Assembly (NCBI GenBank): GCA_964187785.1
Contig: OZ076410.1
Coordinates: 11,842,001 to 11,906,000, forward strand
Length of the DNA stretch: 64,000 nt
Source: Amphiscolops sp. MND2022
Lineage: Eukaryota
Direction of reading: 5' to 3'
Shown here: positions 23,013 through 53,890 of the stretch, one piece after another
Numbering within the stretch: the first letter of the stretch is position 1
How the letters are laid out: every line of letters starts with the position of its first letter
Program-made: the position numbers and the translations under genes
Notes under the pieces: model-generated
Told to the model about the DNA's origin: nothing
The model's database searches: none
What the model saw: the letters and a program-made list of their open reading frames with translations, nothing else

Positions 23013-23028
23013 CTAAAACATACACGAC

Positions 23029-23513
23029 CAGGGATGTAAAAAATATATTGTATTTGAATATATTGACAATAAATTGAAAATGCATTCATTATTTTTAGTT
23101 TTGTACAATACAATATACTTTTTGTTCACATGTACTTGTTTTGCGCCAATATATTTTGATAGTCATTTTAATGTTGGCTTAATAATACACAAATGTATTA
23201 TGAAATGTATTACACGCGAAATGCACGAAACTCAATTCAATTTCTCGGCCAACTGTTGTAAAGTAATTAGATTTAGTTACTAGTCGTGTAGAAAAATCGA
23301 TTCAGTAAGCAAGTATTTTTTAATGGTTAGATATACAGTCCAAGAAGTGTACAAATGAAGTATTTGTTCGAACAAAATATTTTTTCGAACAAAATATTTT
23401 TTCCTCGAACAATATTGGACAATATATTCAATATATTCATTGTTAGCCAGCAACTGTTAAATACATTTATTATTTTGAAAAACCATATTCATATACAATA
23501 TTTCACATCCCTG
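23029..23513. mobile_element. hAT-family MITE (copy at 25319-25803; related copy ~34901-35769)
   Basis: TIR cagggatgt...acatccctg; 8-bp TSD TACACGAC. Confidence 0.85.
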
Positions 23514-23547
23514 TACACGACCACTAGTAGGAGGTACAGGGTTGTGC

Positions 23548-23943
23548 TAGGGCTGTGCAATTATCATTTTTTTGAGTTCGGTCGGCTATCGGTCGGTCAT
23601 TTTTTTTGAAAAATGTGAACAAAATAGTAAATTTCAACTTCATTTTTAAGCAATTTTCTTATAGCAACTTCTCATTAAAACAAGTTCGCGGAAAGTTTCT
23701 GGGCTTAGAGGTTCTCTTTGTGTAGTGATAAAGTTGCCTCAATCAGACCAATGTCGTCCACTAGGAACTGCTGTAGCTGGTATTCCAAGTAAAAACTGAG
23801 CTTTTACACTTAAAACAGGGAATACTTGTCTTTTTTTGGTCGAACGAATTACCCGAAGTCGGTTATCCAATAAGTCGGTCGGTTTCGGTGATTGACAACT
23901 TCGGTCGGTTAATCGAGTTCGGTCGATTAATTGCACAGCCCTA
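23548..23943. mobile_element. hAT-family MITE (copy at 25838-26233)
   Basis: TIR tagggctgtgcaatta...taattgcacagcccta; 8-bp TSD GGTTGTGC. Confidence 0.88.
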
Positions 23944-26900
23944 GGTTGTGCATTATTGCATTGTCAATAACACTGTTCACATAACTATTATCATTGCTTA
24001 AAAAAATCGGATATAGCGCAATACACTTCGGATATGACGTCAAAAATTCGGGTATATTTAGGTATTTGCAGTTTTTGAAGAACTATTTTAGTAAAGTCGT
24101 GTGCATAGAAAAAAACGACGAAAAACCACTAATAGTCGAGCTTTTCATTTTCAATAAAGCGTCGACTAAAAAGGCAATGAACAATGCTATAATTGAAATT
24201 ATTGTAAACCACGAGTGAGGGTTGTTGAACAATCCAAGATTTAGAAAAAAACACTTTTGACCTTTGTTACTAAAACTATGATAGATTCAGTAAAAAAGTA
24301 TTGTACAAAGACAATAAATAAACAATATTGAGGTTAAAATTTTAAAAAACACCCATTACAGGTATAATCTACAGTAGGGTTCTAAAGATCGCGACTCCAT
24401 TACTCAAAATGACAAAATTCAATAACGAGTATCTCGCAAACTGTCACAAATAGAAACATTTAGTCAGCAACACGTTTCACAGAATGTTCAATTTACAAAA
24501 TTATTTGTTTGAAATCTCTACGACGCTATTGAAAAATTGAGAAAGTTGGAAATTGCAATTTTTACGAAATCATAATGGAATTTTGAGGTTTTTTCGAAAA
24601 TCGAGTAGCTTATAATCAAAACTTTCCGAAAATTATTCATTCGGAGACTCCTTATAATCTCCGCAACCAACTGAATTGTCCTGATTCAAATCCTACGAAA
24701 AATCCTTAAAAAAACTTTCATGGCTGACAATTTTTTGTATTTCTGGCAGTTTGGATTTGAAATTCGCTCTTTTGAGCAAGGAGTTGTGATATTTTAGAAC
24801 GCTACTGTTAGAAGTTTTAATCAGTATTCAAATCGAAGGACCACAATTGTAGCAGTTTTGACACCGCTAATCAGCAATTTAGCGAAATAGCGGCCGCGCA
24901 AAAATTTTCAGCGATTCAAATAGCGGCAACTAGTAGATTGTCCATATTCAAAACTTCATCTGAGTACATATGCAGTTCAAAATAAATTTCGAAAAACTTT
25001 TACCCTCGTAAAACCCACGTAGTATCAAAAAAGTATAGTGTTTCTCTTGCAAAAGCCAAATGAGGTTATCGTTTATATTTGAAACATTCTTGTTTCCAAA
25101 CATGTAATAGTTTGCAGGAAAAGCTTTAGAGCGATATAGCGATTTTGAAATCAGAGGTTTAGCGATTAGCGAAGAAATTAGCGATGTCAAAATCCTGCAT
25201 TGTAGTAATAATTGCTCACAGGGGACCATCATTGCAGTCATTTGGAGTCGACAATCAAAAAGGAAATAGGAAAATACCAAACTGTAGTAAATGAATTTGG
25301 CCCCTGATTTTACACGACCAGGGATGTAAAAAATATATTGTATTTGAATATATTGACAATAAATTGAAAATGCATTCATTATTTTTAGTTTTGTACAATA
25401 CAATATACTTTTTGTTCACATGTACTTGTTTTGCGCCAATATATTTTGATAGTCATTTTAATGTTGGCTTAATAATACACAAATGTATTATGAAATGTAT
25501 TACACGCGAAATGCACGAAACTCAATTCAATTTCTCGGCCAACTGTTGTAAAGTAATTAGATTTAGTTACTAGTCGTGTAGAAAAATCGATTCAGTAAGC
25601 AAGTATTTTTTAATGGTTAGATATACAGTCCAAGAAGTGTACAAATGAAGTATTTGTTCGAACAAAATATTTTTTCGAACAAAATATTTTTTCCTCGAAC
25701 AATATTGGACAATATATTCAATATATTCATTGTTAGCCAGCAACTGTTAAATACATTTATTATTTTGAAAAACCATATTCATATACAATATTTCACATCC
25801 CTGTACACGACCACTAGTAGGAGGTACAGGGTTGTGCTAGGGCTGTGCAATTATCATTTTTTTGAGTTCGGTCGGCTATCGGTCGGTCATTTTTTTTGAA
25901 AAATGTGAACAAAATAGTAAATTTCAACTTCATTTTTAAGCAATTTTCTTATAGCAACTTCTCATTAAAACAAGTTCGCGGAAAGTTTCTGGGCTTAGAG
26001 GTTCTCTTTGTGTAGTGATAAAGTTGCCTCAATCAGACCAATGTCGTCCACTAGGAACTGCTGTAGCTGGTATTCCAAGTAAAAACTGAGCTTTTACACT
26101 TAAAACAGGGAATACTTGTCTTTTTTTGGTCGAACGAATTACCCGAAGTCGGTTATCCAATAAGTCGGTCGGTTTCGGTGATTGACAACTTCGGTCGGTT
26201 AATCGAGTTCGGTCGATTAATTGCACAGCCCTAGGTTGTGCATTATTGCATTGTCAATAACACTGTTCACATAACTATTATCATTGCTTAAAAAAATCGG
26301 ATATAGCGCAATACACTTCGGATATGACGTCAAAAATTCGGGTATATTTAGGTATTTGCAGTTTTTGAAGAACTATTTTAGTAAAGTCGTGTGCATAGAA
26401 AAAAACGACGAAAAACCACTAATAGTCGAGCTTTTCATTTTCAATAAAGCGTCGACTAAAAAGGCAATGAACAATGCTATAATTGAAATTATTGTAAACC
26501 ACGAGTGAGGGTTGTTGAACAATCCAAGATTTAGAAAAAAACACTTTTGACCTTTGTTACTAAAACTATGATAGATTCAGTAAAAAAGTATTGTACAAAG
26601 ACAATAAATAAACAATATTGAGGTTAAAATTTTAAAAAACACCCATTACAGGTATAATCTACAGTAGGGTTCTAAAGATCGCGACTCCATTACTCAAAAT
26701 GACAAAATTCAATAACGAGTATCTCGCAAACTGTCACAAATAGAAACATTTAGTCAGCAACACGTTTCACAGAATGTTCAATTTACAAAATTATTTGTTT
26801 GAAATCTCTACGACGCTATTGAAAAATTGAGAAAGTTGGAAATTGCAATTTTTACGAAATCATAATGGAATTTTGAGGTTTTTTCGAAAATCGAGTAGCT

Positions 26901-28032
26901 TATAATCAAAACTTTCCGAAAATTATTCATTCGGAGACTCCTTATAATCTCCGCAACCAACTGAATTGTCCTGATTCAAATCCTACGAAAAATCCTTAAA
27001 AAAACTTTCATGGCTGACAATTTTTTGTATTTCTGGCAGTTTGGATTTGAAATTCGCTCTTTTGAGCAAGGAGTTGTGATATTTTAGAACGCTACTGTTA
27101 GAAGTTTTAATCAGTATTCAAATCGAAGGACCACAATTGTAGCAGTTTTGACACCGCTAATCAGCAATTTAGCGAAATAGCGGCCGCGCAAAAATTTTCA
27201 GCGATTCAAATAGCGGCAACTAGTAGATTGTCCATATTCAAAACTTCATCTGAGTACATATGCAGTTCAAAATAAATTTCGAAAAACTTTTACCCTCGTA
27301 AAACCCACGTAGTATCAAAAAAGTATAGTGTTTCTCTTGCAAAAGCCAAATGAGGTTATCGTTTATATTTGAAACATTCTTGTTTCCAAACATGTAATAG
27401 TTTGCAGGAAAAGCTTTAGAGCGATATAGCGATTTTGAAATCAGAGGTTTAGCGATTAGCGAAGAAATTAGCGATGTCAAAATCCTGCATTGTAGTAATA
27501 ATTGCTCACAGGGGACCATCATTGCAGTCATTTGGAGTCGACAATCAAAAAGGAAATAGGAAAATACCAAACTGTAGTAAATGAATTTGGCCCCTGATTG
27601 TAAAAGATTTAGACTGAAAACAAAAAAAAACTAGAAACCTGACTTATTTTAGAGGTCATCAAAAATGCTCGATCGAATATTATTAAATTTGTGGAAACAC
27701 CTTCAGAATCAGTTTTGCAAACAACTTTATAGCTTGCTAATATCGCTTTCAACAACATGTATTTATCACTAAATCCTGATCTAGGAGCAAGTTTTTGCAT
27801 ATTGATCTCAGAATTTTCAAACAAAAATGTTTTTTTTTGTAATCGGCGTTAAAATTATTAATCATTCAGTTTTTACAGTTTTCTGAAATAACCAGTTCGT
27901 TCAGAAGATTTTGATTTCTTTTATTCTCGAGTCTAGATCAGATCATTTTTACAATCAGGGGTCCAATTCATTTATTACAGTATTGCAGCTGCAGCCCTGA
28001 TATTTTGGTTAATTGCTTGGTCGTTGTCGTAC

Positions 28033-36179: not shown

Positions 36180-37754
36180 TGTCGCACGCATGGGTGAAAT
36201 TTGTTTATTAGTTTTAATCTGTCAAGTCCTTGTTTGCATTTTACAAGGTACTATCTCGCGACGGTTCTGTTATTGATTTAACAAGTATAAGTCCCAACAA
36301 ATAAATTAGCAACTTACTGATAAAGGGGTGCCTTGCGTGTACGTGCGAACAAAGGAAATTGCGTGAGTCGCGCAAGGCGGTGTTTGTAAATGAGCTTCCC
36401 GTTTACTGAAAATGTATGGTGAATAAATATGTTTAATTACGAATGAGTTGAGAATATTGAAAGTGAACAATTTCTGGACATAGCAATATTTCTTTCAATT
36501 GTTACAAATCTCAGATTAATAAAGATTACAACTTCACTTTACAAGAAGAAGTAATATAACTTTTACAATTTATCATTTAAGAAAATGAAACTATTTACAA
36601 ATAATAAGAATTTCCCTTTTTCTTCGGAAATTTTTTTCTCAAACAAAATTTAAAAATCCGTACTATTTTAAACGGAAGAGTTTTGATTTAGATGTCTCTA
36701 TTCAGTAGAAAGTTGAATAGCATTAAGACTTTTTCATAATATGACACTTTAAAACTTCAATCATCCCTTTTCTTATGTGAGTTTATGTAACTTCAACCTC
36801 ATAGAAATTTAGTTCTAATAAGAATAGTCTAAGCTAAAGTTTGGTCAACCGCAGAATTGAAATCAGCGGAAAATAGTCTAAGTTAAGGTTTTGGAAACCG
36901 CCGAGTTTAAATCAGCGGAAAATAGTCTAAGTTAAAGTTTTGGAAACCGCCGAGTTTAAATCAGCGGAAAATAGTCTAAGTTAAAGTCTCAGAGAGAGTG
37001 AAATCTCTACTGAAAGGTCTAAATAGTCAGACTCACCAAACCGGAGACGAAATTGAAGAGAAATTTCTAAGTTAGAAATTTCTTGTAAGGGAAGATTGGT
37101 TCTGGAAGTTGAAGTTAAATCAAGGATGAGTGGAGAAATATTCCAAGATGCAAGGGTATGATCAAAAGAGAATTATTGGATCTGAGTTATTAAGCAAGAA
37201 GTTTTGTTGAGTTAAATAGAAATCGGAATTGAAAGTGAAGGCGAGAAATAGACTTTCTAAGTCTGAAGGGGAAGATAATAGTAAAGGGAGAGGAAAGGGG
37301 GTAAAGTAAGAAAGAAGAGCAGGGGTGAGGGGAGAGAAGTGGAAGAGAAGAGAAGAGAAACGAGAGCTATTAAGTTTAAGCTCTGTCCGTTTCGATAAGT
37401 GAATGAATCTCCTCGCCTGCGTTGGCCGTATATATACAGCCAAGCATTTCTTATCGTGTGCTGCGTAGCAGGCATGGTTTACATGCCACCAATCATAGCT
37501 GTTTTCGTATTTCAAATATACGCGGTATAATATAGAATTCTTCACTTGTGCAATTCCTTTCTCGTCACAGTACTTCATCATCATTATTTCCACGTTATGG
37601 CCGCCGCCTTATGGCCGCCATCTTTATCTACAACTCTCTCCCCCATAAACAAACGTTAGTTCTAGTTCATGTTTGTTTCTGTATTTGTTAGTTAAATATA
37701 GACTGCACTTTAGCACCTAATTATGTTTGTTAAAGCGTTAGTCATAACGCGACA
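36180..37754 (-). repeat. Element 2 3' LTR (1575 bp)
   Basis: Direct repeat of 52316-53890 at offset 16136; one substitution seen (36653/52789). TATATATA at 37429-37436; AATAAA on the minus strand at 36204-36209. Confidence 0.96.
36823..36987 (-). repeat. 3.3 x 49-bp tandem repeats in element 2 LTR, each with a stem-loop (also 52959-53123)
   Basis: Units start at 36823, 36872, 36921, 36970; the minus strand forms CCGCUGA-UUUAAAC-UCGGCGG. Confidence 0.85.
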
Positions 37755-37790: not shown

Positions 37791-38723
37791 TTATGGGTCA
37801 GACTGAAAGGAGGGGGAGTTATGTAGCGCGAGTGACTTAGGGGAAGGTTCTTTAAATTTGATTCTAAATATTATAGAGTCATTGTTTAGGAATGCTTCTC
37901 TGAAGTTGACAAGTAACTTCGTATGAGGGATGAAGTCTTCTTTGAGGAGGTTCGGGTGCGTGTAGAGATTGTGAAGGGTATCTTCGTGGTTGTGGGGGTT
38001 GATTGGGAAAAGTGTGGACCACTTGTTGCCTTCGTCCTTCTGATCAAGGATTTCGACTTCTACTGTTTTATCAAAGGGCCATGTTTGTGGGTGAGTGAAG
38101 TCGCTATAATGAAGTTCACAGCTAATAGAAGAGTGGGTCCCACGGAAGATGTTTATCCCGTAAGGGAATATTCTGAAGGAAATTTTGCAGCCTGATAGGT
38201 ATGTTGGGTAAATAGGGCTCGCGAAGCTGTTTTTGATGTTGTGAAACGGATCGTCTGGAGAGGTCCTTGCTTTTCGGTAAAGTGTGGAGAAGGCGGAAAC
38301 TTGCCAAGTGATAAAATCTTTACCGTTCTCTTCAATCTGGCTGCTGAGGAGGGAGCTTTGGTGTTTGATTGTCGCTCGAAAATCGAAGATAGTGACTTCC
38401 AATTGTTGACGTTTATCTCGTGCCTCTTCGATTGAGGTACATAGCAGTTTGATTCGGTTTTCTAACTTCTTTTGGGGTTGATTAATGTCCGTTAAAGGGA
38501 AGGACTTTCGAAGCGGTGTGCTTTTTGTTCCCTGGTTATAGGTACTAGTTGATTTCTCCCATTCACTAATCCACATATTTAGTCTTTCCACTCCTTCGAG
38601 GTTTGCATGTTCTTCTTGATCGTTTTCTTCAGGCATGGGTGGCCAGTCGGGGTTAGGGTTCGGTAGGTAGGGGTTGTGTTTTGGGATGAAGGGGGTGGCA
38701 TGTGGGTTTAATTTTTGGCTCAT
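37791..38723 (-). CDS. PAM2 motif - coiled coil - TRAF-C/MATH domain protein (310 aa), element 2 accessory gene
   Basis: N-terminal SQKLNPHATPFIP (PAM2 LNxxAxxFxP); coiled coil; FITWQVSAF...SPIYPTYLSGCKISFRIFPYG...GTHSS...WPFDKTVEVEILDQ...FLNNDSIIFRIKF parallels TRAF-C (SPPFYT..GYK.CLR.Y.NG...GTHLS...WPF...VT..LLDQ). No RING or zinc fingers. Confidence 0.85.
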   Translation of the reverse strand: MSQKLNPHATPFIPKHNPYLPNPNPDWPPMPEENDQEEHANLEGVERLNMWISEWEKSTSTYNQGTKSTPLRKSFPLTDINQPQKKLENRIKLLCTSIEEARDKRQQLEVTIFDFRATIKHQSSLLSSQIEENGKDFITWQVSAFSTLYRKARTSPDDPFHNIKNSFASPIYPTYLSGCKISFRIFPYGINIFRGTHSSISCELHYSDFTHPQTWPFDKTVEVEILDQKDEGNKWSTLFPINPHNHEDTLHNLYTHPNLLKEDFIPHTKLLVNFREAFLNNDSIIFRIKFKEPSPKSLALHNSPSFQSDP

Positions 38724-39301
38724 TGTGCAGATATGGATCTTAAGGGAACTGTCAGCCGCTGTCCCTTCAGTGCAGGGTTCTCAATAGTGCATTCTTGTCT
38801 TTTGTTGTCCCAAAAGACGATTTTCCAGGTTGAAAACTGTGGGAGTAGAGAATACTTTAGGTTCGCGTTAAATCTAGGTTTTTTAACGTATCTGGCTCTT
38901 CTAGTGAAGTATTCCCTTTTATGTTGCTTCTGTAAGGGTGCTTCATCGGCTATCTTGTTGTTCCATTCATAATAGTGTTTTTGTGGTGTGTTTCTTCTGA
39001 TGTCCTTTCCACCAAATCTAGGAGGATGTTGTGCGGACGGGATTGGTGGTATTTCTCCTGTGAATGACAAAGGAAAGGGGAGTTGGTCGGATGGCGTAGG
39101 TGTGAAAGTTGGAGTTGGAGATTTTGAGGGTGATGAAGGGACCGTTGAGTCAGGAGGGTCTGGAAGAAAGGTAATTGTTGTAGACGAGTCTGGTGTCAAA
39201 AAGTCTGAAGGAGATAGTGGTTCGATTTCTAGGTCACTTTCTGGGATAGGATCCAGGGTATCGTCGTCCAGGCTTGGTAGGTCGAATAGTGGTTCTAGAT
39301 T
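38720..39301 (-). CDS. ATG-less 193-codon exon: acidic/Pro-rich N-part, Arg/Lys-rich segment, small beta-rich C-part
   Basis: The frame opens exactly at tttattagtttacttttag|AAT (39301); no in-frame ATG; its stop overlaps the TRAF ATG (ATGA). Confidence 0.7.
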   Translation of the reverse strand, partial: NLEPLFDLPSLDDDTLDPIPESDLEIEPLSPSDFLTPDSSTTITFLPDPPDSTVPSSPSKSPTPTFTPTPSDQLPFPLSFTGEIPPIPSAQHPPRFGGKDIRRNTPQKHYYEWNNKIADEAPLQKQHKREYFTRRARYVKKPRFNANLKYSLLPQFSTWKIVFWDNKRQECTIENPALKGQRLTVPLRSISAQ

Positions 39302-39347: not shown

Positions 39348-41495
39348 TTATATTGGAGCTACGAAGCTCTGTACTGAGGGATAAAGTGATTCTTCCTTTT
39401 TCTTCAGTGCTTGGAGTTCTACTTCTTTTCCATTATCTTCAATTTTCGCGTTTTTATCTTCAACGCTATCCTCGTAAGGGGCCCGCGGGGTGAATACAGA
39501 AGTTAAAACTGAGGTAAAGAAAAGATTGTACGAAGCACTGAGCAATGTTTTAGTGAAGCTCAGTGTATTACCTGTAAGGTGACGAAGTTCAAAGTATCGG
39601 AAGACGAGTACCGTGATATCTATTACGAACTTAATGAAAAGAAAGGCGCCAAAATACGCGCCGCAAAGTTCTAGTACGTAAGATATACTTCCGAATGTTT
39701 CAAGGAACTGATTTTTGAAGTAACCGGGTGATATCATGCCGTCAACATAAAAATCGGTACGGGGTGCATAATACGCGAATGATTCGGGTCCACTATGGGC
39801 CATTGAGGGTGTGATGAGCTCTCGTGAGAACTTCTGGAGGGCGTTGCGAGACGCTGCGCTGATGAGGATTTTGTCCCAAAATTCTGAGAGTTGTTTAGGC
39901 GTGTACATTCCCGCGTCTTGTGAACCAGGGAAGGATCTAGTAATCATTGGTTGTATGTCTTTGGGTCCGAAGATAGCAGGTCGGTCGCGATGTTCGGGTG
40001 AAGGAGTGAGGGTAAACCAGGAGTCTTTGTCTTCCATATCCAATTGAAAGAGGTTCTTAATGCGATCGCTGCAATTTTGGGCGTTCGCGTTAGGATAGGT
40101 CTGTCGGGTGATTGGGTCCACGAAGGCAACCACTCCTTTGTAGAAGATGGGTATGCGGTCGTAGCATCGGTTCATCGTGTGAAGAGGTGAGTGGGATTCC
40201 GGACAGTGGTAGAGCCATGCGAGGCTGCCATCTGTGTTCAGGAACATAGAGCGATTTCCCGTGAGCATGTATCCGGCGAGGCGAGGATTTTCCATTGATA
40301 ACATCAAGATAGTGAGGATTTGAGTTCGTTCTTGTTCACATTGAGCTTTGAGGAGTTGGATTTCTGAGGCTTCGAGGAGACGAGTGCTCTCAAAGAAGAG
40401 ATAATCAAGCTTTGTCCCTTGGTGTAACTCGTAATCCATGTTGAGGTAATGAGGTGTATTAGGGTTGGGGTCGCTCGGGCCTCGAAAGAGGTGGAGTCGG
40501 CCATTACCAGAACCATCTTCGGGTGAATAGTATTGTAGTTTAGATGTCTCTCCCATGGAGATGCCGAGTCGTCTGCCGGACGTCATGTCGAAGCCAGCAA
40601 GTTGGATTGAAACGTACAGGGATTCGTAGTTGGTCGGGTATACATCGTCTGGTTTGTTGCAATACTTTTGTGGTCTGTTGTAGACTTCGAATAAAAATTT
40701 GGTAGTGGAGTCGTTGCCGCTTACGATATAATAGTTAGATCCGTGTTTGATCATGTTCACGATTTCTTTCCTATGTACTGCAAGCACGCAATTATCGGGC
40801 TCCGCCCATGTGTAGGCGTATGGGTCCAGTGACGTCGTTTCGCAACCTAGTTGTTCTAAGGGGCAGGGAAGGACCATCTGAAACGGAGTCAGGACTTTTC
40901 CATCTCGAGTTTTGACTGATAATTCAGCATCTTGGATGTGAGATTCGAATGTTTCTCTTTTGATCCAGCCACCTGTCTTGCATTCATTTCGGGTATCTGG
41001 GTCGCGTACACCGTCCCAACTCTTTCCGTATTTGGCGTTTCTCGTCTGTACTTGTTTCACTCCTTTCTTAAATTTGAGGGGTTGTCCATGGATTATGACT
41101 TCTTTGCCTTCACCCATTGCCTTGCAGGTTTCGGGTGACAGGGAAAGATCGCTGGTGATTCCGTCGTGTAGGATTGACATACTGGAGTGGTCGTGATAAC
41201 CACTATGCCATTCTTCACTCTGATGTTTCACACGGCACATAGTGGCGTTGATAGTGCGGCGGAAATGTTTAGTGTATAACGTTACGCTCGCACGACTTAC
41301 CTCTAAGTTTTCAGGTGCCACATTGCATTGTTCAACTTGATTCAATGCGTAGAGTTTATTTTGGGTCATTTCGCCGCAGTCGAAATGAGTTACTCGCAGT
41401 TTTTTAGCAACGCTAGCGAGGTTTGGCGTTGGACGTTGTAATATCACAACGGGCGCGTAATGGGCGCATAAAAAGAGTAAGTAAAATAATTTCAT
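39348..41495 (-). CDS. env: Element 2 envelope glycoprotein, class III (chuvirus G / herpes gB-like) (715 aa)
   Basis: Signal peptide; THFDC...YALNQVEQC, CRVK..EWHSGYHDH, CPLEQLGCETT...YTW.EPDNC, QCEQER cysteine pattern; C-terminal TM; acceptor aatttcag|aaATG directly upstream. Confidence 0.78.
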   Translation of the reverse strand: MKLFYLLFLCAHYAPVVILQRPTPNLASVAKKLRVTHFDCGEMTQNKLYALNQVEQCNVAPENLEVSRASVTLYTKHFRRTINATMCRVKHQSEEWHSGYHDHSSMSILHDGITSDLSLSPETCKAMGEGKEVIIHGQPLKFKKGVKQVQTRNAKYGKSWDGVRDPDTRNECKTGGWIKRETFESHIQDAELSVKTRDGKVLTPFQMVLPCPLEQLGCETTSLDPYAYTWAEPDNCVLAVHRKEIVNMIKHGSNYYIVSGNDSTTKFLFEVYNRPQKYCNKPDDVYPTNYESLYVSIQLAGFDMTSGRRLGISMGETSKLQYYSPEDGSGNGRLHLFRGPSDPNPNTPHYLNMDYELHQGTKLDYLFFESTRLLEASEIQLLKAQCEQERTQILTILMLSMENPRLAGYMLTGNRSMFLNTDGSLAWLYHCPESHSPLHTMNRCYDRIPIFYKGVVAFVDPITRQTYPNANAQNCSDRIKNLFQLDMEDKDSWFTLTPSPEHRDRPAIFGPKDIQPMITRSFPGSQDAGMYTPKQLSEFWDKILISAASRNALQKFSRELITPSMAHSGPESFAYYAPRTDFYVDGMISPGYFKNQFLETFGSISYVLELCGAYFGAFLFIKFVIDITVLVFRYFELRHLTGNTLSFTKTLLSASYNLFFTSVLTSVFTPRAPYEDSVEDKNAKIEDNGKEVELQALKKKEESLYPSVQSFVAPI

Positions 41496-41874: not shown

Positions 41875-42219
41875 TCAGCTGTAGTTATCACTGATTGATT
41901 TTAGACTGGGAGAGTGTTTGTTACGTCCCTGAGCGTCGAGAAAATCGATTAACTTGCTGAGGAGATGAAGGGTCAGAGGGTGAACGTGATCTAAGTAAGC
42001 GATCTGCCTGTATTCGGTTAGCGCCTTCGCAAGATCTGCTGCTTCTGTCGAGTCTGTGGCGACAGGGATGAGCCAATGTCCCGTTTGATGTGGTCGGAGG
42101 CTGTGGAGTTCAATCTGAAGTGCGGGGGCGCTCTCTTTCCAGGCTATAGAGAGGATCTCAAGAAGTGTGTTTGTTTCCGGGTGACGCCAGAGGAATTTGA
42201 GTTGTATTTTAAACATCAT
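41875..42219 (-). CDS. Element 2 small accessory ORF D (114 aa from ATG)
   Basis: ATG overlaps the end of ORF C by 11 nt; shares a motif with ORFs A-C. Confidence 0.65.
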   Translation of the reverse strand: MMFKIQLKFLWRHPETNTLLEILSIAWKESAPALQIELHSLRPHQTGHWLIPVATDSTEAADLAKALTEYRQIAYLDHVHPLTLHLLSKLIDFLDAQGRNKHSPSLKSISDNYS

Positions 42220-42604
42220 AGGTCTCAACTAGGGTGTGAAGATATTTGATTCTAACCTCTTCTTCAAAGGGGTTAGTAACTAGGGTGATATCCATAAAAT
42301 AAACCAAGTCGTCGAAAGCCTTGTCTTTAAGGACAGCGGGGTGTTGGAGTATGTATTGTTGGAACGATAGGAATAGGTAGGCGTATTCCTTGGACCCGAA
42401 GTGAATAGGGAAGAGGACTAGTGCTTCTTTGTCTTCTGGTGTGAGTATACGGACTTGTATCGCCGAGGTAGTGATCTCGTAAAAGATTGACTGTATTTCG
42501 TATTCACCCGTGAGTTGTATAGGTTTCCAAGGAACCGGAGGTTGAAATTGAGTGTGGAAGTAGTACTTATTTCCTCGAAATACGGCAACTGCGGGAGAGG
42601 ACAT
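42209..42604 (-). CDS. Element 2 small accessory ORF C (131 aa)
   Basis: ATG fused to the ORF B stop (TAATG). Confidence 0.7.
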   Translation of the reverse strand: MSSPAVAVFRGNKYYFHTQFQPPVPWKPIQLTGEYEIQSIFYEITTSAIQVRILTPEDKEALVLFPIHFGSKEYAYLFLSFQQYILQHPAVLKDKAFDDLVYFMDITLVTNPFEEEVRIKYLHTLVETYDV

Positions 42605-43938: not shown

Positions 43939-44325
43939 CTAGGAGCTAGGCGAGGAGATAGTAGAACAGCAGAATAAGTCTTTTTGGGTGTTAGGTAATG
44001 AAGGTTGTAGGTCAGGTATCAGGGTAGGCATGTAGGATAGGAGTTCCTCTAGGATAGGGACATGGTGGGTGACGGCATAATAGGCTAAGTGTTGATATAA
44101 GCGGGCGAAAGTAGGTGATTCTGGGTGTATATGAAGGTTAGATTTTCTAGGCGTAGGTTGTTTATGTGGGCTAGGATCTGGGTCGTTGGAGTAGAAACAA
44201 ATTCTAACTATTTTGTTTTTGTAGGTCCAGTAGATTTTAGTAATCGTAACCTGTAGGACTCCTAAGGACTGGGGTTCTCGCGGGACTTGCCAAGGTAAGT
44301 TTAGATAGACTTTATGGCACGCCAT
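43939..44325 (-). CDS. Element 2 small accessory ORF A (128 aa from ATG)
   Basis: ATG lies 7 nt after the stop of the integrase C-terminal frame; shares a motif with B-D. Confidence 0.65.
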   Translation of the reverse strand: MACHKVYLNLPWQVPREPQSLGVLQVTITKIYWTYKNKIVRICFYSNDPDPSPHKQPTPRKSNLHIHPESPTFARLYQHLAYYAVTHHVPILEELLSYMPTLIPDLQPSLPNTQKDLFCCSTISSPSS

Positions 44326-44332
44326 AGTAAGG

Positions 44333-44917
44333 TTATTCTTTGTAACCAATTCTAGTCCTTTCACGAAGTATGGACTGTAGCGCTGGTTGATTGGGTTGTG
44401 CTCGCTGATAACGCGGATTTCTTTCTATTTGGCGGGCAACGGCTCTTCGTAATTCTTGCAAGGGAGTCGTTGACTTGGTAGAAGATGCCGGGGTGTTAGT
44501 TGGGGGTGCTGGAGTTGGTTGACGTTGAGTTAATGTCAGGATAGGGGTTGCTGCGTTTTGAGGATGTGATGTAGAAGGCTGATCGGGGGTCTTGGGAGTT
44601 GACAACAACTGATTTTCTGGAGAGATGATACCAGAGTCTGTGCTCTGGGGGGTTTGCGTTCTTTTGCGGGCAAGTATTTGGTTTTGTTGATTCCGTACTG
44701 GCAATATGCAGAGGTCTCCGAGTTTTTGTGGTTCTGAAACATTAAGTTGTTCAATTCTTCCTTTGACAAGATTGTTATAAAAATCCGTGTCTCCACGGTG
44801 GGGAGTAGTGTATTCTTCGATAAGAGGCGGGAGTGTTTCTTCTTTAGGAAAGTATTCTATTAGATGATTCCTATGTACAGTTCGGAGATTCTCGGGGTTT
44901 TGATCTTCTATTATTTG
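44333..44917 (-). pseudogene. Frameshift-separated C-terminus of element 2 integrase
   Basis: After GPFTVTKRITNTT the -1 frame reads QIIEDQNPENLRTVHRNHLIEYFP..., the usual continuation of a Gypsy integrase; open to TAA at 44333. Confidence 0.8.
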
Positions 44918-47900
44918 GTTGTATTTGTAATTCGTTTGGTAACCGTAAAGGGTCCTAGTCGCAGTTGTTGGAGTTTTTGGCTTTTGGAGAGATCTTTTCT
45001 ATGGTTTTCTAGCAGAACCTTTTGTCCTATGTTGAGGTGGTTTCCAAGTTTAAATCTGTTCCTGTAGGCGTGTGATTGAGCTGTTTGTTTTCTGCACTTT
45101 TCGTATGTGGATGAGTAGACCTTTTTGAAGGCTGTTTCTCGTTCCAATAAGCTTTGTGATAGTTGTGGTCGTAATAGTCCATTTAGTAGTTCGTTTTTGA
45201 CTTGGTTTTCGCTATGGCAATGAGGAGGTAATCCTTGACAGAATTGTGATTTGCAGTTCTTGTTTTTGTTCCTGTAGAGTCCCAGCTTCAGACTCATAGG
45301 TATCTGTGGTTTGTTGCAAAACACTATCTCGTAGGGGGTCTTTCCAGTTGTGTAGTTGACGCTTGTGTTGTGGGCGAATGCAAATTTGGCAGCTAGTTGG
45401 GCCCAGTTGTTTCCTGATTCGTTTAAGAAGTTTCTCCAGTATCTTGCAATGTGTTGATTTTGAGTTTCTACTTTGCCATTTGTCCAGGGTGAGTGTGCGG
45501 TTCTTGGTCGAAGTGTAATGCCAAACTCTTTAGCCCAATTGACGAATTCAGTGTTCACGAAAGCTGTTCCTCTATCATGTACGATAGATTGAGGGATGCC
45601 ATAGTGCATAATCCATTTTTCCATCGCGTTGATTGTAGATTGTGCTCCTGTGTCTCTGACTGGGTATGCCATCAGGTAACGTGAGAAGGCGTCGATGATC
45701 AGAAGGCAATGTGAATTTCCACGACTGGGAGGATTGAGTGGTCCTTTGTGATCAATGTGGATGGTTCTGAAAACTTGAGTTTCGGTTTCGCAGTCTTCCA
45801 GTGGGACTTCGTTGTTTCTCCGTTGTTTGGATTTGTTAGATTGGCAGCTAACACAATCTTGTGTGAGGGCACAGATCCAGTTGTGCATCCCTGGCCAGTA
45901 GTAAAATCTCTTAGCATTGAGGAAGGTCTTTTCTGCTCCCATGTGGCCGCCGAGGTCGTTGTAATGTCCCATACGAAAGCAAGCTAAAAATAGAGAGAGG
46001 GGTAGACAGATTCTCAGATTCTCGTCTGTTGGGTCATCAGTTGGCTCGTTATAACAAAGGAGGTTTCCTTGGCCTTCTATAGATAATCTGTCGAATTGCT
46101 GAAAGTAACGCATGAGGCCTTTTGAGTGTTGTAACTCTGGTGATTTTGGTTCGGGTTTGTTTCCTGTTCTTACCCATTGTCGGACTACGCTGAGTACCGG
46201 GTCATTAATTTGTTCTTGTAAGATCGTTGTAACGTTTAGTTCTACTTCTTTGGATAGTTTATCAAGTTGTCTGACGAGTTCCTGTGTTGGTGTCTTTTGT
46301 TTTTCAGTTGAATTTGTAGGTAGATCGAGGTGTTCTATTGCCTTTGCGTTTTTGGGAAGACCTGGGTTACGCGCGATGAGATCTTCTGTGTTGAGCTCGT
46401 AGTTGGTCTCGTTAATTTCATGACTCTGATTGTCTGTGAGGGCTTCGTCATCCGTATCACTGTTGATGGAGCTGTAAGTGTTTTGTGATAAATCCGATGT
46501 GCTATCCCGTGTTCCAGACCTGATTCTTAGTTCTTCGAATTTTCCAAGTTCTCTTCCAGCGTCGAGGCAACTCTGTGCTGACTCTACTTTCGGCAGGTTA
46601 GGTTCCTCGTAGATAGAGTTAACTGTGAAGTTTTTCCCATCATTTTGGAGATGAAGTACTTTCCGTTCTTTTCCCTTCTCGTACAAGATGGGGTAAAAGT
46701 CGTTCTTGGATGTCTCTTCATTTTCTTCGTGTTTGATTTTGTAGTGTACTTGGGTTCCATGTTCGTCGAAAAAGTGTATGTCAGTTGGGATGACTTTGTG
46801 ACTGAGTTGATGTTTCTTGTGTTCCTCGATGGAGACGTTTCGACTGAGTATATCAGGGAAGGCTAGGTTGCTTCCTGGAGTCCAAATTATCTTGAGATTC
46901 GGGAATTTAGATATAATTACTTGGTACCGAAAAAAACGGGGTGAAACTTGTCCCTTTCTTCCCCAGAAATAAAGAATCGGCTTGTGATCGCAGTATAGGT
47001 AGATGGGGAAGGGAGATCCGATGATGTAGTGTTCATACGTCTGAAGAGCTGAGACTATGCCACATAATTCTCTGTGTAGTGTGGACATCTTTTGTTCTTC
47101 CTTTGCGAAAACTCTTGAGTTGAAGGAAATGATCCGTTTCCCTTCTGGGAATTGTTGGATGAGGATACATCCTGTCCCAACGTTTGACGAGTCGACGTGT
47201 ATGTGAAAGGGGTATTTTGTCGAGGGTATTGCGAGCACTGTGTCTTCGGTAATTCTTTTCTTTATTTCCTGGAAAAGGTCTTCGTGTTCTTGGTTCCAGC
47301 AAAAATTTGTATCTTTCTTGGTGAGTTCGTAAAAAGGTCGACTATCGACGTGAAGATTCTTGATGTAGCAGCTATAGAAGCCCAAAGCTCCTAAGAAGCT
47401 TTTCACTTCGGTTTTGGTCTTTGGTGATTTGAGATTGTGTAGGTCTTTTACTCGTTTTGCTACGGGTTGTATTCCTTCGGCTGCTATCACGTGTCCCAAA
47501 AACTTGACTTTCCTTAAGAAGAAGAGTGTCTTATCTGGTGCTGCCTTGAGTCCGGCTTTCCGCAGTAAGTTATGGTATTCTTGAATTACCGTGAACATTT
47601 CTTGTTTGTTTTTGGCTTGCATCAACGTGTCGTCGATGTATGTAATTGCCTGTTTCCTTTTGATGAGGGGTTCGAAGTGGATAGTCATCATTCTGCTAAA
47701 GAAGCTTGGTAATCCCTTGAGTCCATAGAATCCCCTGGTGAAGGTGTATTGTTTTCCGCCAATGATGAAGCTGGTGAGTTTTTGCGTGGGCTCGTCTAAT
47801 GGGACTTGGTGAAATGCACAGGAGAGATCACTTACTGAGAAGATGTTTCCATTTATTAGTGTCATTATGGTTTGGATCGGTTCTAAGGGCCAGGAATAAT

Positions 47901-49836
47901 TTGTTAGATCTGTCACCGAGTTTAGATATCTCGCATCTATGATCAGCTTGACATAGTCATGTTTTGGTTGTAGTATAATAGGATTCACAAATAAGGATCC
48001 CATTTCTTCATCGTCGCCCATTTCTCTGATGATATCAGCGTCTTTGAGTTGTGTGAGTAGCTTCTCTAGCTTTTCTCGTAGGTGAAGTGGTACTTTGCTG
48101 GGTCTCTGTCTCTTTAGAATTGCTCCAGGTTCTAGTTTAATGTTAAATTTTTGTCTGGTTTTCCCTACGTCAAATTTGTGTTGGGAGTATACATCTCTTG
48201 CGTCCATTAGTAAGTCTATTAGGAGAACCAGTTCTTCGTCTGTGAGGTCTGAGTAGCGAAAGTCGAATTCTTTAATGTATCGCACTGCTTCTTTATTTTG
48301 ATACTGAAGGTAGTACTCGATCAGTCGTTCGTTGTCTTCTTTTGGCCTGAAGATTTTAAATTGCTCATCGCAGGGTGGTTGACAGGACTTTGCGTCGCTT
48401 GTGAAGTCTGTCTCCAGCTCTCTATGTTTGAGATGAAATTGCTCGGAAAATTGTTGTATCTCATCTAGTACGTATTCGGGGTCTCCTCTTGTAGTCATGG
48501 CATAGACATCTAGTTCGTTTCTTGTATAAATTCGGAGTTGTAATTCTGAGTATGCAAATACGTCTTGAATGAGTTGAGTGACGTCTTGCCATTGGAAGTC
48601 TTCTAGCTCTGAGGCTTCCCGTAGCATGGATATAGTCTTGATGCCGCTCATTTTGGCGTGTGCTTTTAGAGTTTCGAGAGATTGAACTAGCAATTGTGGG
48701 TCAATCTTGTCTTTTGATTTTGCTTTCGTAATCAGAACATATATAAATCGTTTCAGAGTTTCGTCCCAGTAGGGTATGATTTCTCCTTTCTGTGGTTTCT
48801 GTTTTGCGCATGTATCCTTAAGTGAAGGTATTTTCGTTAGGATTTCTTTTGAGAAACCTTTGGCTGGTTTTAGGTCGGCCGGGACGAAGATGATGATAGG
48901 GTCTGGTCTGCTGAGTATTGTTTTCGAGTTTCCTCCTTCTATTCTGAGGCAATCGTTCATATCTTGTGAAGGGATGGTAGAGTGTAATAGGAAACAGTCG
49001 TTGTATTCTTCGTTTTCGTTTAGGATAGCATAGGCGAGTTCTGTCGGGTTTCTAATTTGGTATTTCGGAATTTCTTGGTCTAATACGTCAAGCATTGAGT
49101 ATCCGATAGTTCCTTTTACTAAAGTGATTGTATGGTTTTTGTTGTTTTCCATGACGATTGGTAAAGTCTTCTCAAATCGTGTGCAGAGGACATTAATGAA
49201 GTTAAGTCCAGTAGAAACTGCCTTCCTGTTCGGTAGGAACGTAGATCCAGGAGGAAATGAGTTATTAGTGTTTTCCGGTGCGAATTTGTAACATCTTGTC
49301 GTCTTTGGTTCGATATACATTGAGTGAGGAATTCGAACTGAGAGAATTTGTGATAGATAGGGGTAACATTTGTTGAGTTGTAGGCTACCATAGCAAAAAG
49401 TATTTATAGGTCTTTTGAGTTCTATGCCAGGAAGATCAAAGTGTATTTTGTTAACTTGTTCTTGGCAGAAATTCATTCCAAGGAGGTTTTGGGTTTTCAT
49501 CTCTGTTATCCAGACTGTTAATGGGAAGTTATGTTGTCCATCGGAATCGTAGTAGAGTTTGAGGGTGATGTATCCCATCATAGGGATGATCTGCCCAGAG
49601 TAGTTCCGTGTTGTGTTATTGCTTCTACTAAGTTCTAGGTCTTGTTGAAACTGGCAAAGTTCTCTAAAGGTCCTGTAGTTGATGATTGAAGATGTTGCCC
49701 CAGTGTCTAGTAGAAATTCGATTTCTAAGCCACTATCTTTTTGTGGGTCTCCGGCAGCAAAATAATAAAGATTAAGACTAAATTTTAGTGGGGCTGTGCT
49801 GCTGTTACGATTTTTCGGAGACCTTAGTAGTTTAAA
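44911..49836 (-). CDS. pol: Element 2 pol: protease-macrodomain-RT-RNase H-integrase (via -1 frameshift)
   Basis: FLLDTGATSSII (~49700, upstream of the listed ORF start); TARG1-like domain ~48525-48915; YIDD; HVDSSNVGTGCIL; HHCC; HIDHKGP / HDRG / KVETQN. Confidence 0.93.
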   Translation of the reverse strand, partial: FKLLRSPKNRNSSTAPLKFSLNLYYFAAGDPQKDSGLEIEFLLDTGATSSIINYRTFRELCQFQQDLELSRSNNTTRNYSGQIIPMMGYITLKLYYDSDGQHNFPLTVWITEMKTQNLLGMNFCQEQVNKIHFDLPGIELKRPINTFCYGSLQLNKCYPYLSQILSVRIPHSMYIEPKTTRCYKFAPENTNNSFPPGSTFLPNRKAVSTGLNFINVLCTRFEKTLPIVMENNKNHTITLVKGTIGYSMLDVLDQEIPKYQIRNPTELAYAILNENEEYNDCFLLHSTIPSQDMNDCLRIEGGNSKTILSRPDPIIIFVPADLKPAKGFSKEILTKIPSLKDTCAKQKPQKGEIIPYWDETLKRFIYVLITKAKSKDKIDPQLLVQSLETLKAHAKMSGIKTISMLREASELEDFQWQDVTQLIQDVFAYSELQLRIYTRNELDVYAMTTRGDPEYVLDEIQQFSEQFHLKHRELETDFTSDAKSCQPPCDEQFKIFRPKEDNERLIEYYLQYQNKEAVRYIKEFDFRYSDLTDEELVLLIDLLMDARDVYSQHKFDVGKTRQKFNIKLEPGAILKRQRPSKVPLHLREKLEKLLTQLKDADIIREMGDDEEMGSLFVNPIILQPKHDYVKLIIDARYLNSVTDLTNYSWPLEPIQTIMTLINGNIFSVSDLSCAFHQVPLDEPTQKLTSFIIGGKQYTFTRGFYGLKGLPSFFSRMMTIHFEPLIKRKQAITYIDDTLMQAKNKQEMFTVIQEYHNLLRKAGLKAAPDKTLFFLRKVKFLGHVIAAEGIQPVAKRVKDLHNLKSPKTKTEVKSFLGALGFYSCYIKNLHVDSRPFYELTKKDTNFCWNQEHEDLFQEIKKRITEDTVLAIPSTKYPFHIHVDSSNVGTGCILIQQFPEGKRIISFNSRVFAKEEQKMSTLHRELCGIVSALQTYEHYIIGSPFPIYLYCDHKPILYFWGRKGQVSPRFFRYQVIISKFPNLKIIWTPGSNLAFPDILSRNVSIEEHKKHQLSHKVIPTDIHFFDEHGTQVHYKIKHEENEETSKNDFYPILYEKGKERKVLHLQNDGKNFTVNSIYEEPNLPKVESAQSCLDAGRELGKFEELRIRSGTRDSTSDLSQNTYSSINSDTDDEALTDNQSHEINETNYELNTEDLIARNPGLPKNAKAIEHLDLPTNSTEKQKTPTQELVRQLDKLSKEVELNVTTILQEQINDPVLSVVRQWVRTGNKPEPKSPELQHSKGLMRYFQQFDRLSIEGQGNLLCYNEPTDDPTDENLRICLPLSLFLACFRMGHYNDLGGHMGAEKTFLNAKRFYYWPGMHNWICALTQDCVSCQSNKSKQRRNNEVPLEDCETETQVFRTIHIDHKGPLNPPSRGNSHCLLIIDAFSRYLMAYPVRDTGAQSTINAMEKWIMHYGIPQSIVHDRGTAFVNTEFVNWAKEFGITLRPRTAHSPWTNGKVETQNQHIARYWRNFLNESGNNWAQLAAKFAFAHNTSVNYTTGKTPYEIVFCNKPQIPMSLKLGLYRNKNKNCKSQFCQGLPPHCHSENQVKNELLNGLLRPQLSQSLLERETAFKKVYSSTYEKCRKQTAQSHAYRNRFKLGNHLNIGQKVLLENHRKDLSKSQKLQQLRLGPFTVTKRITNTTK

Positions 49837-51278
49837 GGGCGAAAATCGGAGACAGAGTTCACCGAGTAGTCAGTTTCGAGAAACTGTACTGTGTTGGATC
49901 TTCCCATGTCATTAGTTTTAGGGAACCTTTGATCGTAAGTTTGAGTTGGGGTGTTTGGTCTTTCGTTTCTGTTTAGTGGTCTGTGAAAGACTGAGTTATT
50001 CCTTGGTGGAAGAGGCTGTATGTTGCGATTAAAGGAGCTAGACTGGTCTCTGTTGAAGTTGAACGGAGATCTTGCTCTTTGGGGTCCAGGGGAAACACTC
50101 CTGGAGTTGTTAGAATTGTTTAGGAAGGGTCTTCTCCCTTCTTGTGAAAATCTTCGGTTACCAGGATTGAGTCTTGTATTCGTAGGTCGGCGTTCTGGGT
50201 TGAAATTTTTTCTTTGTGGTCTATCGTATTGATTCCAGGCAGGATTTGACTGCATAGCTCCAGCCAGTGCTAGTTGACGTGCCACAGCCATATGTTTTCT
50301 GATTTCTGAATCTGGTAATCTTGGTAGAAATCTAGAGCCATGTTCAGGTCCAGTTCTTTTGTTGTAGTCGTTGGTGAATGTTATTCTTCTTTCTGGGTTA
50401 GCTTCGTTTTGAACCTTCTTCACTTCTTCATCTCTCATCTTCTTTCTGCACCAGTTAGGTGTGTGCCCATTTGTCCGGCAGTAGCCACAGAATCGTGTGG
50501 CCATCCTTCGACCTGTAGCATTAGGGTCTACAGTTTTCTCTACTGCGTTGATTGTGTTATTCATCTGTTCTTTGATTTGTAGTTTGATTCCCTTCAGGTC
50601 GTCTCGCATTTCTTGTATGAGTGGGTCCGAATGTGATTCTCCGCCAGTTAGGGCGGTAGTTACCGTGTAGGAGAGGTCTTTGTTTATTACAGCTTGGGAG
50701 AATTGTTCCCAGGTTGCATTCGGGTGATCCATTAAATATTCGTGTGCCTTTTCTCTCAGTTTTGGAGGTCTTAGGCCTCTCAGTGAGTAGTCGATGCACC
50801 TTTGTCTTCTTTGTCGGTCTTGTGCTGCTCTTTCTGCGTTTCTGTCGTTTTGTGCGACGCCGGCAAGATCATCTGGCCAGCCTTTCCCCACAACAATTTT
50901 GATTCTGTGTAGAAAATTCTTTATCTCTTCTCCATCTCTTCTGGTGACATGTTCTGCTTCCATTCTGTGTCTGAATTTATTTCGGCCATCTGCGAATCTT
51001 GTGATGAACCTTTCTCTGATTTCTTGCCAGGTGTTAGCGTCTGTGATACTTGTCTCGAACCACTCCGCTGCTGGTCCTCTTAGTAGTGTAGCAAAGTAGG
51101 ATTTTCTCCTGAAGTTGTAGTCGTCAAGTGCTGCTCCGTTTGCTGGGGTATCACCATGAGAGAAACGGAACTTCTTTTCAATTAGCTGTATAAATTGTTC
51201 AGGATCTTGATCTGGGTCTGTTCCTGTGAATTGGTCTCTGCCGAGGTCTGGATAAGCCAAGTAATTTTGCGCAGCCAT
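49824..51278 (-). CDS. gag: Element 2 gag (484 aa)
   Basis: Capsid-like region (F.TLLRGPAAEWF); CCHC knuckle CGYCRTNGHTPNWC; basic C-terminus. Confidence 0.9.
   Translation of the reverse strand: MAAQNYLAYPDLGRDQFTGTDPDQDPEQFIQLIEKKFRFSHGDTPANGAALDDYNFRRKSYFATLLRGPAAEWFETSITDANTWQEIRERFITRFADGRNKFRHRMEAEHVTRRDGEEIKNFLHRIKIVVGKGWPDDLAGVAQNDRNAERAAQDRQRRQRCIDYSLRGLRPPKLREKAHEYLMDHPNATWEQFSQAVINKDLSYTVTTALTGGESHSDPLIQEMRDDLKGIKLQIKEQMNNTINAVEKTVDPNATGRRMATRFCGYCRTNGHTPNWCRKKMRDEEVKKVQNEANPERRITFTNDYNKRTGPEHGSRFLPRLPDSEIRKHMAVARQLALAGAMQSNPAWNQYDRPQRKNFNPERRPTNTRLNPGNRRFSQEGRRPFLNNSNNSRSVSPGPQRARSPFNFNRDQSSSFNRNIQPLPPRNNSVFHRPLNRNERPNTPTQTYDQRFPKTNDMGRSNTVQFLETDYSVNSVSDFRPLNY
49830..49836 (-). 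promoter_or_regulatory. -1 frameshift slippery site U_UUA_AAC (element 2)
   Basis: Gag ends CCT TTA AAC TAC TAA; the -1 frame continues into the protease. Confidence 0.8.
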
Positions 51279-52294: not shown

Positions 52295-52312
52295 GCCTCA
52301 CTGGTCGCACCA
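52295..52312 (-). promoter_or_regulatory. Element 2 primer binding site
   Basis: TGGTGCGACCAGTGAGGC begins 3 nt after the 5' LTR; cognate tRNA not identified. Confidence 0.7.
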
Positions 52313-52315: not shown

Positions 52316-53890
52316 TGTCGCACGCATGGGTGAAATTTGTTTATTAGTTTTAATCTGTCAAGTCCTTGTTTGCATTTTACAAGGTACTATCTCGCGACGG
52401 TTCTGTTATTGATTTAACAAGTATAAGTCCCAACAAATAAATTAGCAACTTACTGATAAAGGGGTGCCTTGCGTGTACGTGCGAACAAAGGAAATTGCGT
52501 GAGTCGCGCAAGGCGGTGTTTGTAAATGAGCTTCCCGTTTACTGAAAATGTATGGTGAATAAATATGTTTAATTACGAATGAGTTGAGAATATTGAAAGT
52601 GAACAATTTCTGGACATAGCAATATTTCTTTCAATTGTTACAAATCTCAGATTAATAAAGATTACAACTTCACTTTACAAGAAGAAGTAATATAACTTTT
52701 ACAATTTATCATTTAAGAAAATGAAACTATTTACAAATAATAAGAATTTCCCTTTTTCTTCGGAAATTTTTTTCTCAAACAAAATTTACAAATCCGTACT
52801 ATTTTAAACGGAAGAGTTTTGATTTAGATGTCTCTATTCAGTAGAAAGTTGAATAGCATTAAGACTTTTTCATAATATGACACTTTAAAACTTCAATCAT
52901 CCCTTTTCTTATGTGAGTTTATGTAACTTCAACCTCATAGAAATTTAGTTCTAATAAGAATAGTCTAAGCTAAAGTTTGGTCAACCGCAGAATTGAAATC
53001 AGCGGAAAATAGTCTAAGTTAAGGTTTTGGAAACCGCCGAGTTTAAATCAGCGGAAAATAGTCTAAGTTAAAGTTTTGGAAACCGCCGAGTTTAAATCAG
53101 CGGAAAATAGTCTAAGTTAAAGTCTCAGAGAGAGTGAAATCTCTACTGAAAGGTCTAAATAGTCAGACTCACCAAACCGGAGACGAAATTGAAGAGAAAT
53201 TTCTAAGTTAGAAATTTCTTGTAAGGGAAGATTGGTTCTGGAAGTTGAAGTTAAATCAAGGATGAGTGGAGAAATATTCCAAGATGCAAGGGTATGATCA
53301 AAAGAGAATTATTGGATCTGAGTTATTAAGCAAGAAGTTTTGTTGAGTTAAATAGAAATCGGAATTGAAAGTGAAGGCGAGAAATAGACTTTCTAAGTCT
53401 GAAGGGGAAGATAATAGTAAAGGGAGAGGAAAGGGGGTAAAGTAAGAAAGAAGAGCAGGGGTGAGGGGAGAGAAGTGGAAGAGAAGAGAAGAGAAACGAG
53501 AGCTATTAAGTTTAAGCTCTGTCCGTTTCGATAAGTGAATGAATCTCCTCGCCTGCGTTGGCCGTATATATACAGCCAAGCATTTCTTATCGTGTGCTGC
53601 GTAGCAGGCATGGTTTACATGCCACCAATCATAGCTGTTTTCGTATTTCAAATATACGCGGTATAATATAGAATTCTTCACTTGTGCAATTCCTTTCTCG
53701 TCACAGTACTTCATCATCATTATTTCCACGTTATGGCCGCCGCCTTATGGCCGCCATCTTTATCTACAACTCTCTCCCCCATAAACAAACGTTAGTTCTA
53801 GTTCATGTTTGTTTCTGTATTTGTTAGTTAAATATAGACTGCACTTTAGCACCTAATTATGTTTGTTAAAGCGTTAGTCATAACGCGACA
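52316..53890 (-). repeat. Element 2 5' LTR (1575 bp)
   Basis: Direct repeat of 36180-37754; TATA at 53565-53572 with an Inr-like sequence ~30 nt downstream. Confidence 0.96.

Follow-up and report, generated by a model that had tools for sequence, protein, structure and literature searches.

An env-bearing Ty3/gypsy retrotransposon encodes a RING-less PAM2, coiled coil and TRAF-C protein, a probable captured host TRAF and candidate PABP adaptor

The minus strand of the window, meaning the whole stretch of 64,000 nucleotides that was analysed, harbours at 37791..38723 an open reading frame (ORF) for a protein of 310 aa. A first-pass annotation saw in this protein a retroelement-encoded PAM2 motif followed by a coiled coil and a TRAF-C/MATH domain, and read it either as a captured TRAF turned into an innate-immune decoy or as a trimeric adaptor between PABP and signalling or ubiquitin machinery. 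The locus raises the question of whether this combination is maintained in related elements, where its TRAF domain came from, and which of these readings fits it.

The ORF is indeed retroelement-encoded. It lies between env and the 3′ LTR of a 17.7-kb Ty3/gypsy LTR retrotransposon, which possesses LTRs with TG...CA ends, gag, env, and protease, RT, RNase H and integrase in this order. The LTR pair shows a single difference over 1575 nt, and a 4-bp target duplication (ATTT) is present on both flanks; with LTRs this close, the element is young. The following features were identified, all on the minus strand and given from the 5′ to the 3′ end of the element.

52316..53890, minus strand: 5′ LTR, 1575 bp
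52295..52312, minus strand: putative primer-binding-site-like stretch (TGG...), just inside the 5′ LTR
49824..51278, minus strand: gag, 484 aa
44333..49869, minus strand: pol (protease, RT, RNase H, integrase), 3′ end in two frames near 44911-44998
43939..44325, minus strand: accessory ORF, 128 aa, no family over cut-off, found in related copies
42209..42604, minus strand: accessory ORF, 131 aa, no family, kept in the PAM2-TRAF lineage
41875..42219, minus strand: accessory ORF, 114 aa, no family, kept in the PAM2-TRAF lineage
39348..41495, minus strand: env, 715 aa, Monjiviricetes-type fusion glycoprotein (PF24664, E 4e-30)
38720..39301, minus strand: upstream cassette frame, 193 codons, no ATG, preceded directly by an acceptor-like TTTTAG, its stop (TGA) overlapping the start codon of the PAM2-TRAF ORF as ATGA
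37791..38723, minus strand: PAM2, coiled coil and TRAF-C ORF, 310 aa, last gene of the element
38682..38711, minus strand: PAM2 motif LNPHATPFIP, residues 5-14
38535..38618, minus strand: predicted helix, residues 36-63 (AlphaFold2 model), conserved in the PAM2-TRAF lineage
38346..38483, minus strand: TRAF-N-like coiled coil, residues 81-126 (AlphaFold2 model and heptad count)
37851..38315, minus strand: TRAF-C/MATH domain, residues 137-291 (Pfam, Foldseek), canonical groove remodelled
36180..37754, minus strand: 3′ LTR, 1575 bp, one difference from the 5′ LTR

In related copies one frame covers the 3′ end of pol, which in the window copy is divided between two. A macro domain suspected by eye in this pol found no match in Pfam. 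The accessory ORFs of 114 and 131 aa show dN/dS values of 0.04-0.23. Both LTRs contain a 49-bp tandem array (36774-37036 and 52910-53172). The window also harbours a second young env-bearing gypsy element at 4695-22506, with LTRs of 3679 bp that have 3 differences; both of these LTRs contain, in antisense, an ORF of 327 aa that matches JmjC weakly (E 0.022, below cut-off), and the pol of this element has a weak macro-domain match (E 0.003). Other features of the window are a further accessory ORF without family at 8617-9420, and a tandem duplication at 23021-27602 with a period of 2290 bp and 99.96% identity.

Several analyses agree on the domains of the protein. Pfam detected MATH_2 (residues 139-289, E 2.1e-9) and TRAF-mep_MATH (E 3.6e-8) over the cut-off, and a profile search with the protein reached TRAF5 with an E of 2e-36. 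The AlphaFold2 model, built from an 11-row alignment (mean pLDDT 66, pTM 0.48), consists of a disordered N-terminus, a helix at residues 36-63, a long helix at 81-126 and a beta-sandwich at 137-291, and its top Foldseek matches are TRAF4 and TRAF5 domains (E 4e-11, probability 1.0). The Atlas lookup placed the ORF with TRAF-MATH clusters at 0.91, at a recognition value of 1946, which is below the 2300 mark of the tool. The long helix is modelled with pLDDT 72-88, has hydrophobic residues at 11 of 15 a/d positions in the best heptad register, and sits directly N-terminal of TRAF-C, as a TRAF-N-type coiled coil. RING and zinc-finger families were not detected in the protein by Pfam, and residues 1-135 contain no cluster of Cys and His. 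The layout is confirmed as PAM2, coiled coil and TRAF-C, RING-less and without zinc finger, as first annotated.

The stretch LNPHATPFIP (residues 5-14) agrees with the published consensus, LNxxAxEFxP, in its L, N, A, F and P and deviates at position 9, where Pro takes the place of Glu. All six anchors known from structures, namely the hydrophobic residue at position 3 (L3), N4, P/V5, A7, F10 and P12 (PMC7356810, PMC2854688), are present. Residues 1-35, in which the motif is embedded, have no secondary structure in the model (pLDDT 39-51) and form a disordered, accessible stretch. The Pfam PAM2 model aligned to residues 2-14 with 13.7 bits (E 0.053) against a cut-off of 20, which was exceeded in none of the proteins scanned. 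A six-frame translation of the window contains the strict motif once. When the protein was shuffled 200,000 times, the motif arose anywhere in 0.03% of cases, and within the first 20 residues in 0.0015% (1.5e-5).

The genome contains 128 scored matches of the protein, in subfamilies near 97%, 57% and 34% identity. Motif and frame counts were made on 54 distinct loci drawn from the 60 best-scoring ones. In this sample of best-scoring copies, the N-terminus was covered in 52 loci, an open frame of at least 300 aa was found in 42, and the strict motif LNxxAxxFxP is kept in 50 of the 54. In every long locus fetched with env, the ORF stands behind env and the upstream frame. Five pairs from different subfamilies gave dN/dS values of 0.17-0.24, to be taken as rough since dS, at 1.6-3.7, is near saturation; among 21 young copies, pN is 0.008 and pS 0.018. 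The ORF is under purifying selection (dN/dS about 0.2, rough), which together with the 42 open frames rules out a chance or decaying ORF. A host gene dropped by chance into one copy is likewise ruled out by the identical position in every long locus with env.

The upstream frame of the cassette (38720-39301) encodes an acidic N-terminus, a basic helix and a small beta-barrel. Pfam and PDB sequence searches gave no match for it, and the fold search gave a best Z of 4.5 to SH3/KOW/Tudor barrels, a weak match to be taken as a lead only. The frame is conserved across all lineages that carry the cassette; it has its own ATG in the lineages named B and C and none in the window lineage, where a spliced 5′ exon would thus be needed. 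The acceptor-like TTTTAG start and the ATGA overlap are kept in the other subfamilies of the window lineage, and one decayed copy differs at the 5′ end. A spliced subgenomic RNA would express the PAM2-TRAF ORF, which may be translated via re-initiation at the ATGA overlap or via a second acceptor. The upstream frame is possibly a regulator.

A family search covered 150 listed matches out of 440 candidate TRAF-MATH matches, mostly from other multi-copy families. Twelve of the fifteen loci fetched with context are related gypsy elements, with pol about 57% identical where fetched, and these possess env, the upstream frame and the coiled coil and TRAF layout as in the window element. In lineages B and C, the TRAF cassette lacks both PAM2 and the ATGA overlap; the RT tree puts the two lineages together, beside the PAM2-TRAF lineage. 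They are at least as abundant as the latter, so the clade succeeds without PAM2 and its TRAF domain serves a purpose independent of it. In three close comparisons with the window copy (L034/L035, L046/L049 and L031/L033), dS is higher in the cassette (1.6-3.2) than in env (0.45-0.64). A gap of several fold between genes of one element pair points to module exchange, and this suggests that the cassette has been exchanged between elements.

The profile search of 1.84 billion representatives revealed further TRAF families, including two PAM2-bearing families that are absent from this genome (best identity 44% and 39%). Starts of the type LNPHAPIFKP are found in 67 of the 120 listed proteins of the first family, and of the type LNPLAPAFLP in 76 of the 120 listed for the second; many of the proteins without a PAM2 match were called from a later start. 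Both families keep the PAM2 anchors and have changed the free motif positions. When read in the shifted frame, the upstream extensions of 10 of the 11 proteins tested agree with the C-terminal motif of the upstream frame at 22-26 of 29 positions (shuffled maxima 16-22); the eleventh protein is too short. As the upstream frame is overlapped in the same register, both families likely carry the same cassette, known here from protein sequences alone.

The PAM2 match could nevertheless be incidental, with the N-terminal codons kept for an RNA-level reason, such as a re-initiation signal at the ATGA, and the protein itself a diverged TRAF cargo. The location of the motif, 3-5 codons after the conserved stop-start overlap, would agree with this, as would the Pfam score below cut-off. 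However, the motif lies past the stop of the upstream frame, so no overlapping frame constrains it, and constraint of that kind is ruled out as the source of its conservation. The anchors are kept while their codons differ by synonymous changes between subfamilies, and they persist across three families that differ at other motif positions. Over 15 pairs from 6 representatives, amino-acid identity falls from 0.77 within the motif to 0.34 over the 21 residues that follow, and the anchors are the best-kept residues outside the TRAF-C domain. Together with the chance level of 1.5e-5 for the first 20 residues, this makes an incidental match very improbable. From its sequence, we predict with good confidence that PAM2 of the window protein binds an MLLE domain.

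The TRAF part has a counterpart among the genes of the host. At G000:C3:90.867 Mb, the genome encodes a TRAF gene with a TRAF zinc-finger exon, a coiled-coil exon and a MATH domain, separated by GT-AG introns. The signature PYG is common to this gene and all element ORFs. A coiled-coil motif shared with the host gene is clear in lineages B and D; in the window protein it scores 1.9 bits, with 8.2 in the best member of the lineage and 9.9 in the best of 1000 shuffles. Both the host gene and a paralogue family retain the last intron, which is read through in all LTR-borne ORFs aligned, as predicted by capture from mRNA. This intron-containing TRAF of the same subtype is the likely donor, judging from the sequences, and it would have been captured through its mRNA, in line with the capture that had been proposed from the element alone. 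The 5′ exons of the host gene were not found within 80 kb upstream, a stretch filled with other elements, so PAM2 itself may be of host origin. A zf-TRAF search of the genome gave two matches, neither near the candidate donor.

Phylogeny against host TRAFs is compatible with several placements of the element ORFs. One clade of all LTR-borne lineages is not rejected (p 0.27), the deep branches being weakly placed, and in the tree of the MATH region only, the PAM2-bearing families fall on one side of a branch (96/86). The window lineage is long-branched, and AU tests allow it to group with B and C (p 0.15) as well as with the canonical TRAFs (p 0.49); a single PAM2 origin and the donor are thus not proven by these trees.

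The surroundings of the host TRAF gene are themselves rich in mobile sequences, since frames in the region upstream (L103-L105, L152-L154) were assigned by eye to BEL/Pao-like and Polinton-like elements. One multi-copy paralogue of the host TRAF subtype (L157:6090-7190, L159:5332-6387, L110-L139) keeps the last intron, and in both loci scanned it lies in the middle of near-perfect inverted repeats of at least 2.8 kb. Here a foldback-like element has likely made a second capture, this one at the level of DNA. The case is a warning that, in such a genome, hundreds of seeming TRAF genes belong to the cargo of mobile elements.

Coiled-coil TRAF domains trimerise and bind receptor motifs via three hot spots, which for Px(Q/E)E are an Arg/Tyr polar pocket, a serine triad and a hydrophobic pocket (PMC6125299). 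In the alignment of the window protein with TRAF5, Arg184 is kept, Tyr395 corresponds to Phe186 and SSSF is aligned with NHED, with residue numbers putatively transferred through the alignment. The serine triad and the following Phe-x-Arg-Pro loop of the TRAF1/2/3/5 groove are replaced in the PAM2-TRAF lineage, and the remodelled MATH surface is conserved within it. The host gene has no serine triad and keeps the loop (FQRP), which was lost in the PAM2-TRAF lineage.

These residues bear on the decoy reading, according to which the protein assembles together with host TRAFs, or sits on the tails of receptors, and thereby dampens signalling of the TIR or TNFR type, while PAM2 only localises or stabilises it. 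Loss of the RING and zinc finger agrees with this, whereas the host gene possesses a TRAF zinc-finger exon. The PAM2-less lineages keep the F-x-[RK]-P loop like the host gene, and possible targets for a decoy exist, since 33 TIR_2 matches were counted in the genome. A Rel-homology search aimed at NF-kB gave 0 matches, but it detected no control either and carries no weight. TRADD and caspase 8 are acted on by viral TRAFs (PMC3352826), and the planarian Burro elements pair TRAF with BIR and BCL2 domains (PMC6431247). However, with the triad, the following Phe and the Arg-Pro loop replaced and Tyr395 aligned with Phe, canonical Px(Q/E)E binding is unlikely, and a decoy leaves unexplained why the PAM2 anchors are the best-kept residues outside the domain. 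The absence of RING and zinc fingers on which the first-pass annotation had based its decoy stands, but the reading itself is weakened by the groove and we hold it to be unlikely.

An adaptor predicted to bind PABP or ubiquitin machinery fits better than a plain immune decoy. The host genome encodes MLLE domains both in PABP and in a UBR5-like gene. A ubiquitin-ligase adaptor would use PAM2 to recruit the MLLE domain of UBR5 (HECT) and the remodelled TRAF-C to bind a host restriction factor, the borrowed ligase replacing the lost RING. It finds support in the UBR5-like MLLE, in the conserved remodelled surface, as expected of a new substrate site, and in the use of MATH domains as substrate adaptors, SPOP being among the fold matches. 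Nonetheless, it names no substrate. PABP is also far more abundant than UBR5, which counts against this adaptor. A further point against it is that validated viral PAM2 ligands pulled down PABP1 and PABP4 (PMC10132805). Recruitment of UBR5 is therefore a minority reading, to which we give little weight.

The remodelled groove, the MLLE domains of the host and the viral precedent, in which PAM2 peptides bind PABP and compete with cellular ligands, one of them with Pro at position 9 (PMC10132805), favour a trimeric PABP adaptor over the decoy, UBR5 and incidental-motif readings. To this PABP-binding adaptor acting on mRNA fate we assign an even chance. By homology, the protein would form a trimer, and its PAM2 would bind the MLLE domain of PABP and compete with eRF3, PAN3, Tob or Paip-type ligands. 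The remodelled TRAF-C would bind some ligand, whose identity is among the least certain points. Least certain is also the outcome, which may be protection of the element RNA or titration of PABP away from host mRNA. The elements likely act on how host mRNAs are translated or how stable they are, rather than just blocking immune signalling. More tentatively, and with appreciable doubt, the protein may be a captured immune adaptor rebuilt as a trivalent mRNP tool, whose three PAM2 hooks serve to cross-link PABP, or else to recruit UBR5, and whose remodelled TRAF-C has acquired a new target. It would then be a post-transcriptional or degradation effector that persists from one host genome to another and whose translation is coupled to that of an upstream regulatory frame.

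Most accessory genes in the env-bearing retrotransposons of invertebrates have yet to be characterised, and PAM2-TRAF is a readable case, because a host TRAF, a likely donor gene, lineages with and without PAM2, and a motif kept across genomes are at hand. The lineages with and without PAM2 are a natural controlled experiment. If PAM2 binds PABP, viral PAM2 mimicry would extend to retroelements, and a signalling scaffold would have been repurposed for mRNA control.

Among known systems, the planarian Burro/GYPSM1 elements are similar in being env-bearing gypsy elements with MATH_TRAF_C, which in Dugesia tigrina forms a separate accessory ORF (PMC6431247). The first-pass annotation knew of no described TRAF-bearing LTR element, but these are such elements. 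Burro elements measure 25-30 kb, and their TRAF domain, accompanied by BIR, BCL2 and ankyrin domains, is either part of a giant polyprotein or encoded upstream of it, whereas the window element measures 17.7 kb and has its ORF 3′ of env and with PAM2, which the available text on Burro does not mention (PMC6431247). The window element, in which gag, pol and env are separate, lacks the hallmarks of Burro: it has no giant polyprotein in which env lies between gag and pol, and no BIR, BCL2 or ankyrin domain. Planarian piRNAs cut traf-6 mRNAs (PMC11663942), possibly a side effect of TRAF cargo, by analogy.

Iridovirus TRAFs, such as ISKNV ORF111L, are also virus-encoded TRAF-domain proteins derived from a host gene; they differ in belonging to a large DNA virus, and in binding TRADD and promoting apoptosis, with no PAM2 mentioned in the text available (PMC3352826). 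They share 14-17% identity with the window protein and are among its fold matches. In the viral PAM2 mimics of Hendra/Nipah P/V, HCoV-229E N and Berne virus N2-17, PAM2 binds the MLLE of PABP; one is N-terminal and one has Pro at position 9, as in the window protein, but they belong to structural or replication proteins of RNA viruses, and are neither retroelement accessory proteins nor joined to TRAF (PMC10132805).

Cellular TRAF1-6 likewise possess a coiled coil followed by the TRAF-C sandwich (PMC6125299), and TRAF1 is described as RING-less. The window protein differs from them in its identity of about 20%, in the receptor hot spots, which are not kept, in PYG for LNG after strand 3, as in the host subtype, and in having PAM2 where RING and zinc fingers would stand. 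Foamy viruses have two accessory frames, bel1 and bel2, between env and the 3′ LTR, and their likeness to the window cassette is an analogy of layout only. The literature search, with Repbase and the Burro supplements outside its scope, found no PAM2-TRAF fusion and no PAM2 in a retroelement protein among the matches listed, in agreement with the first-pass annotation, which knew of no such fusion. TRAF-bearing LTR elements, viral TRAFs and viral PAM2 mimics are thus already known, and what appears new here is the combination of PAM2 with TRAF.
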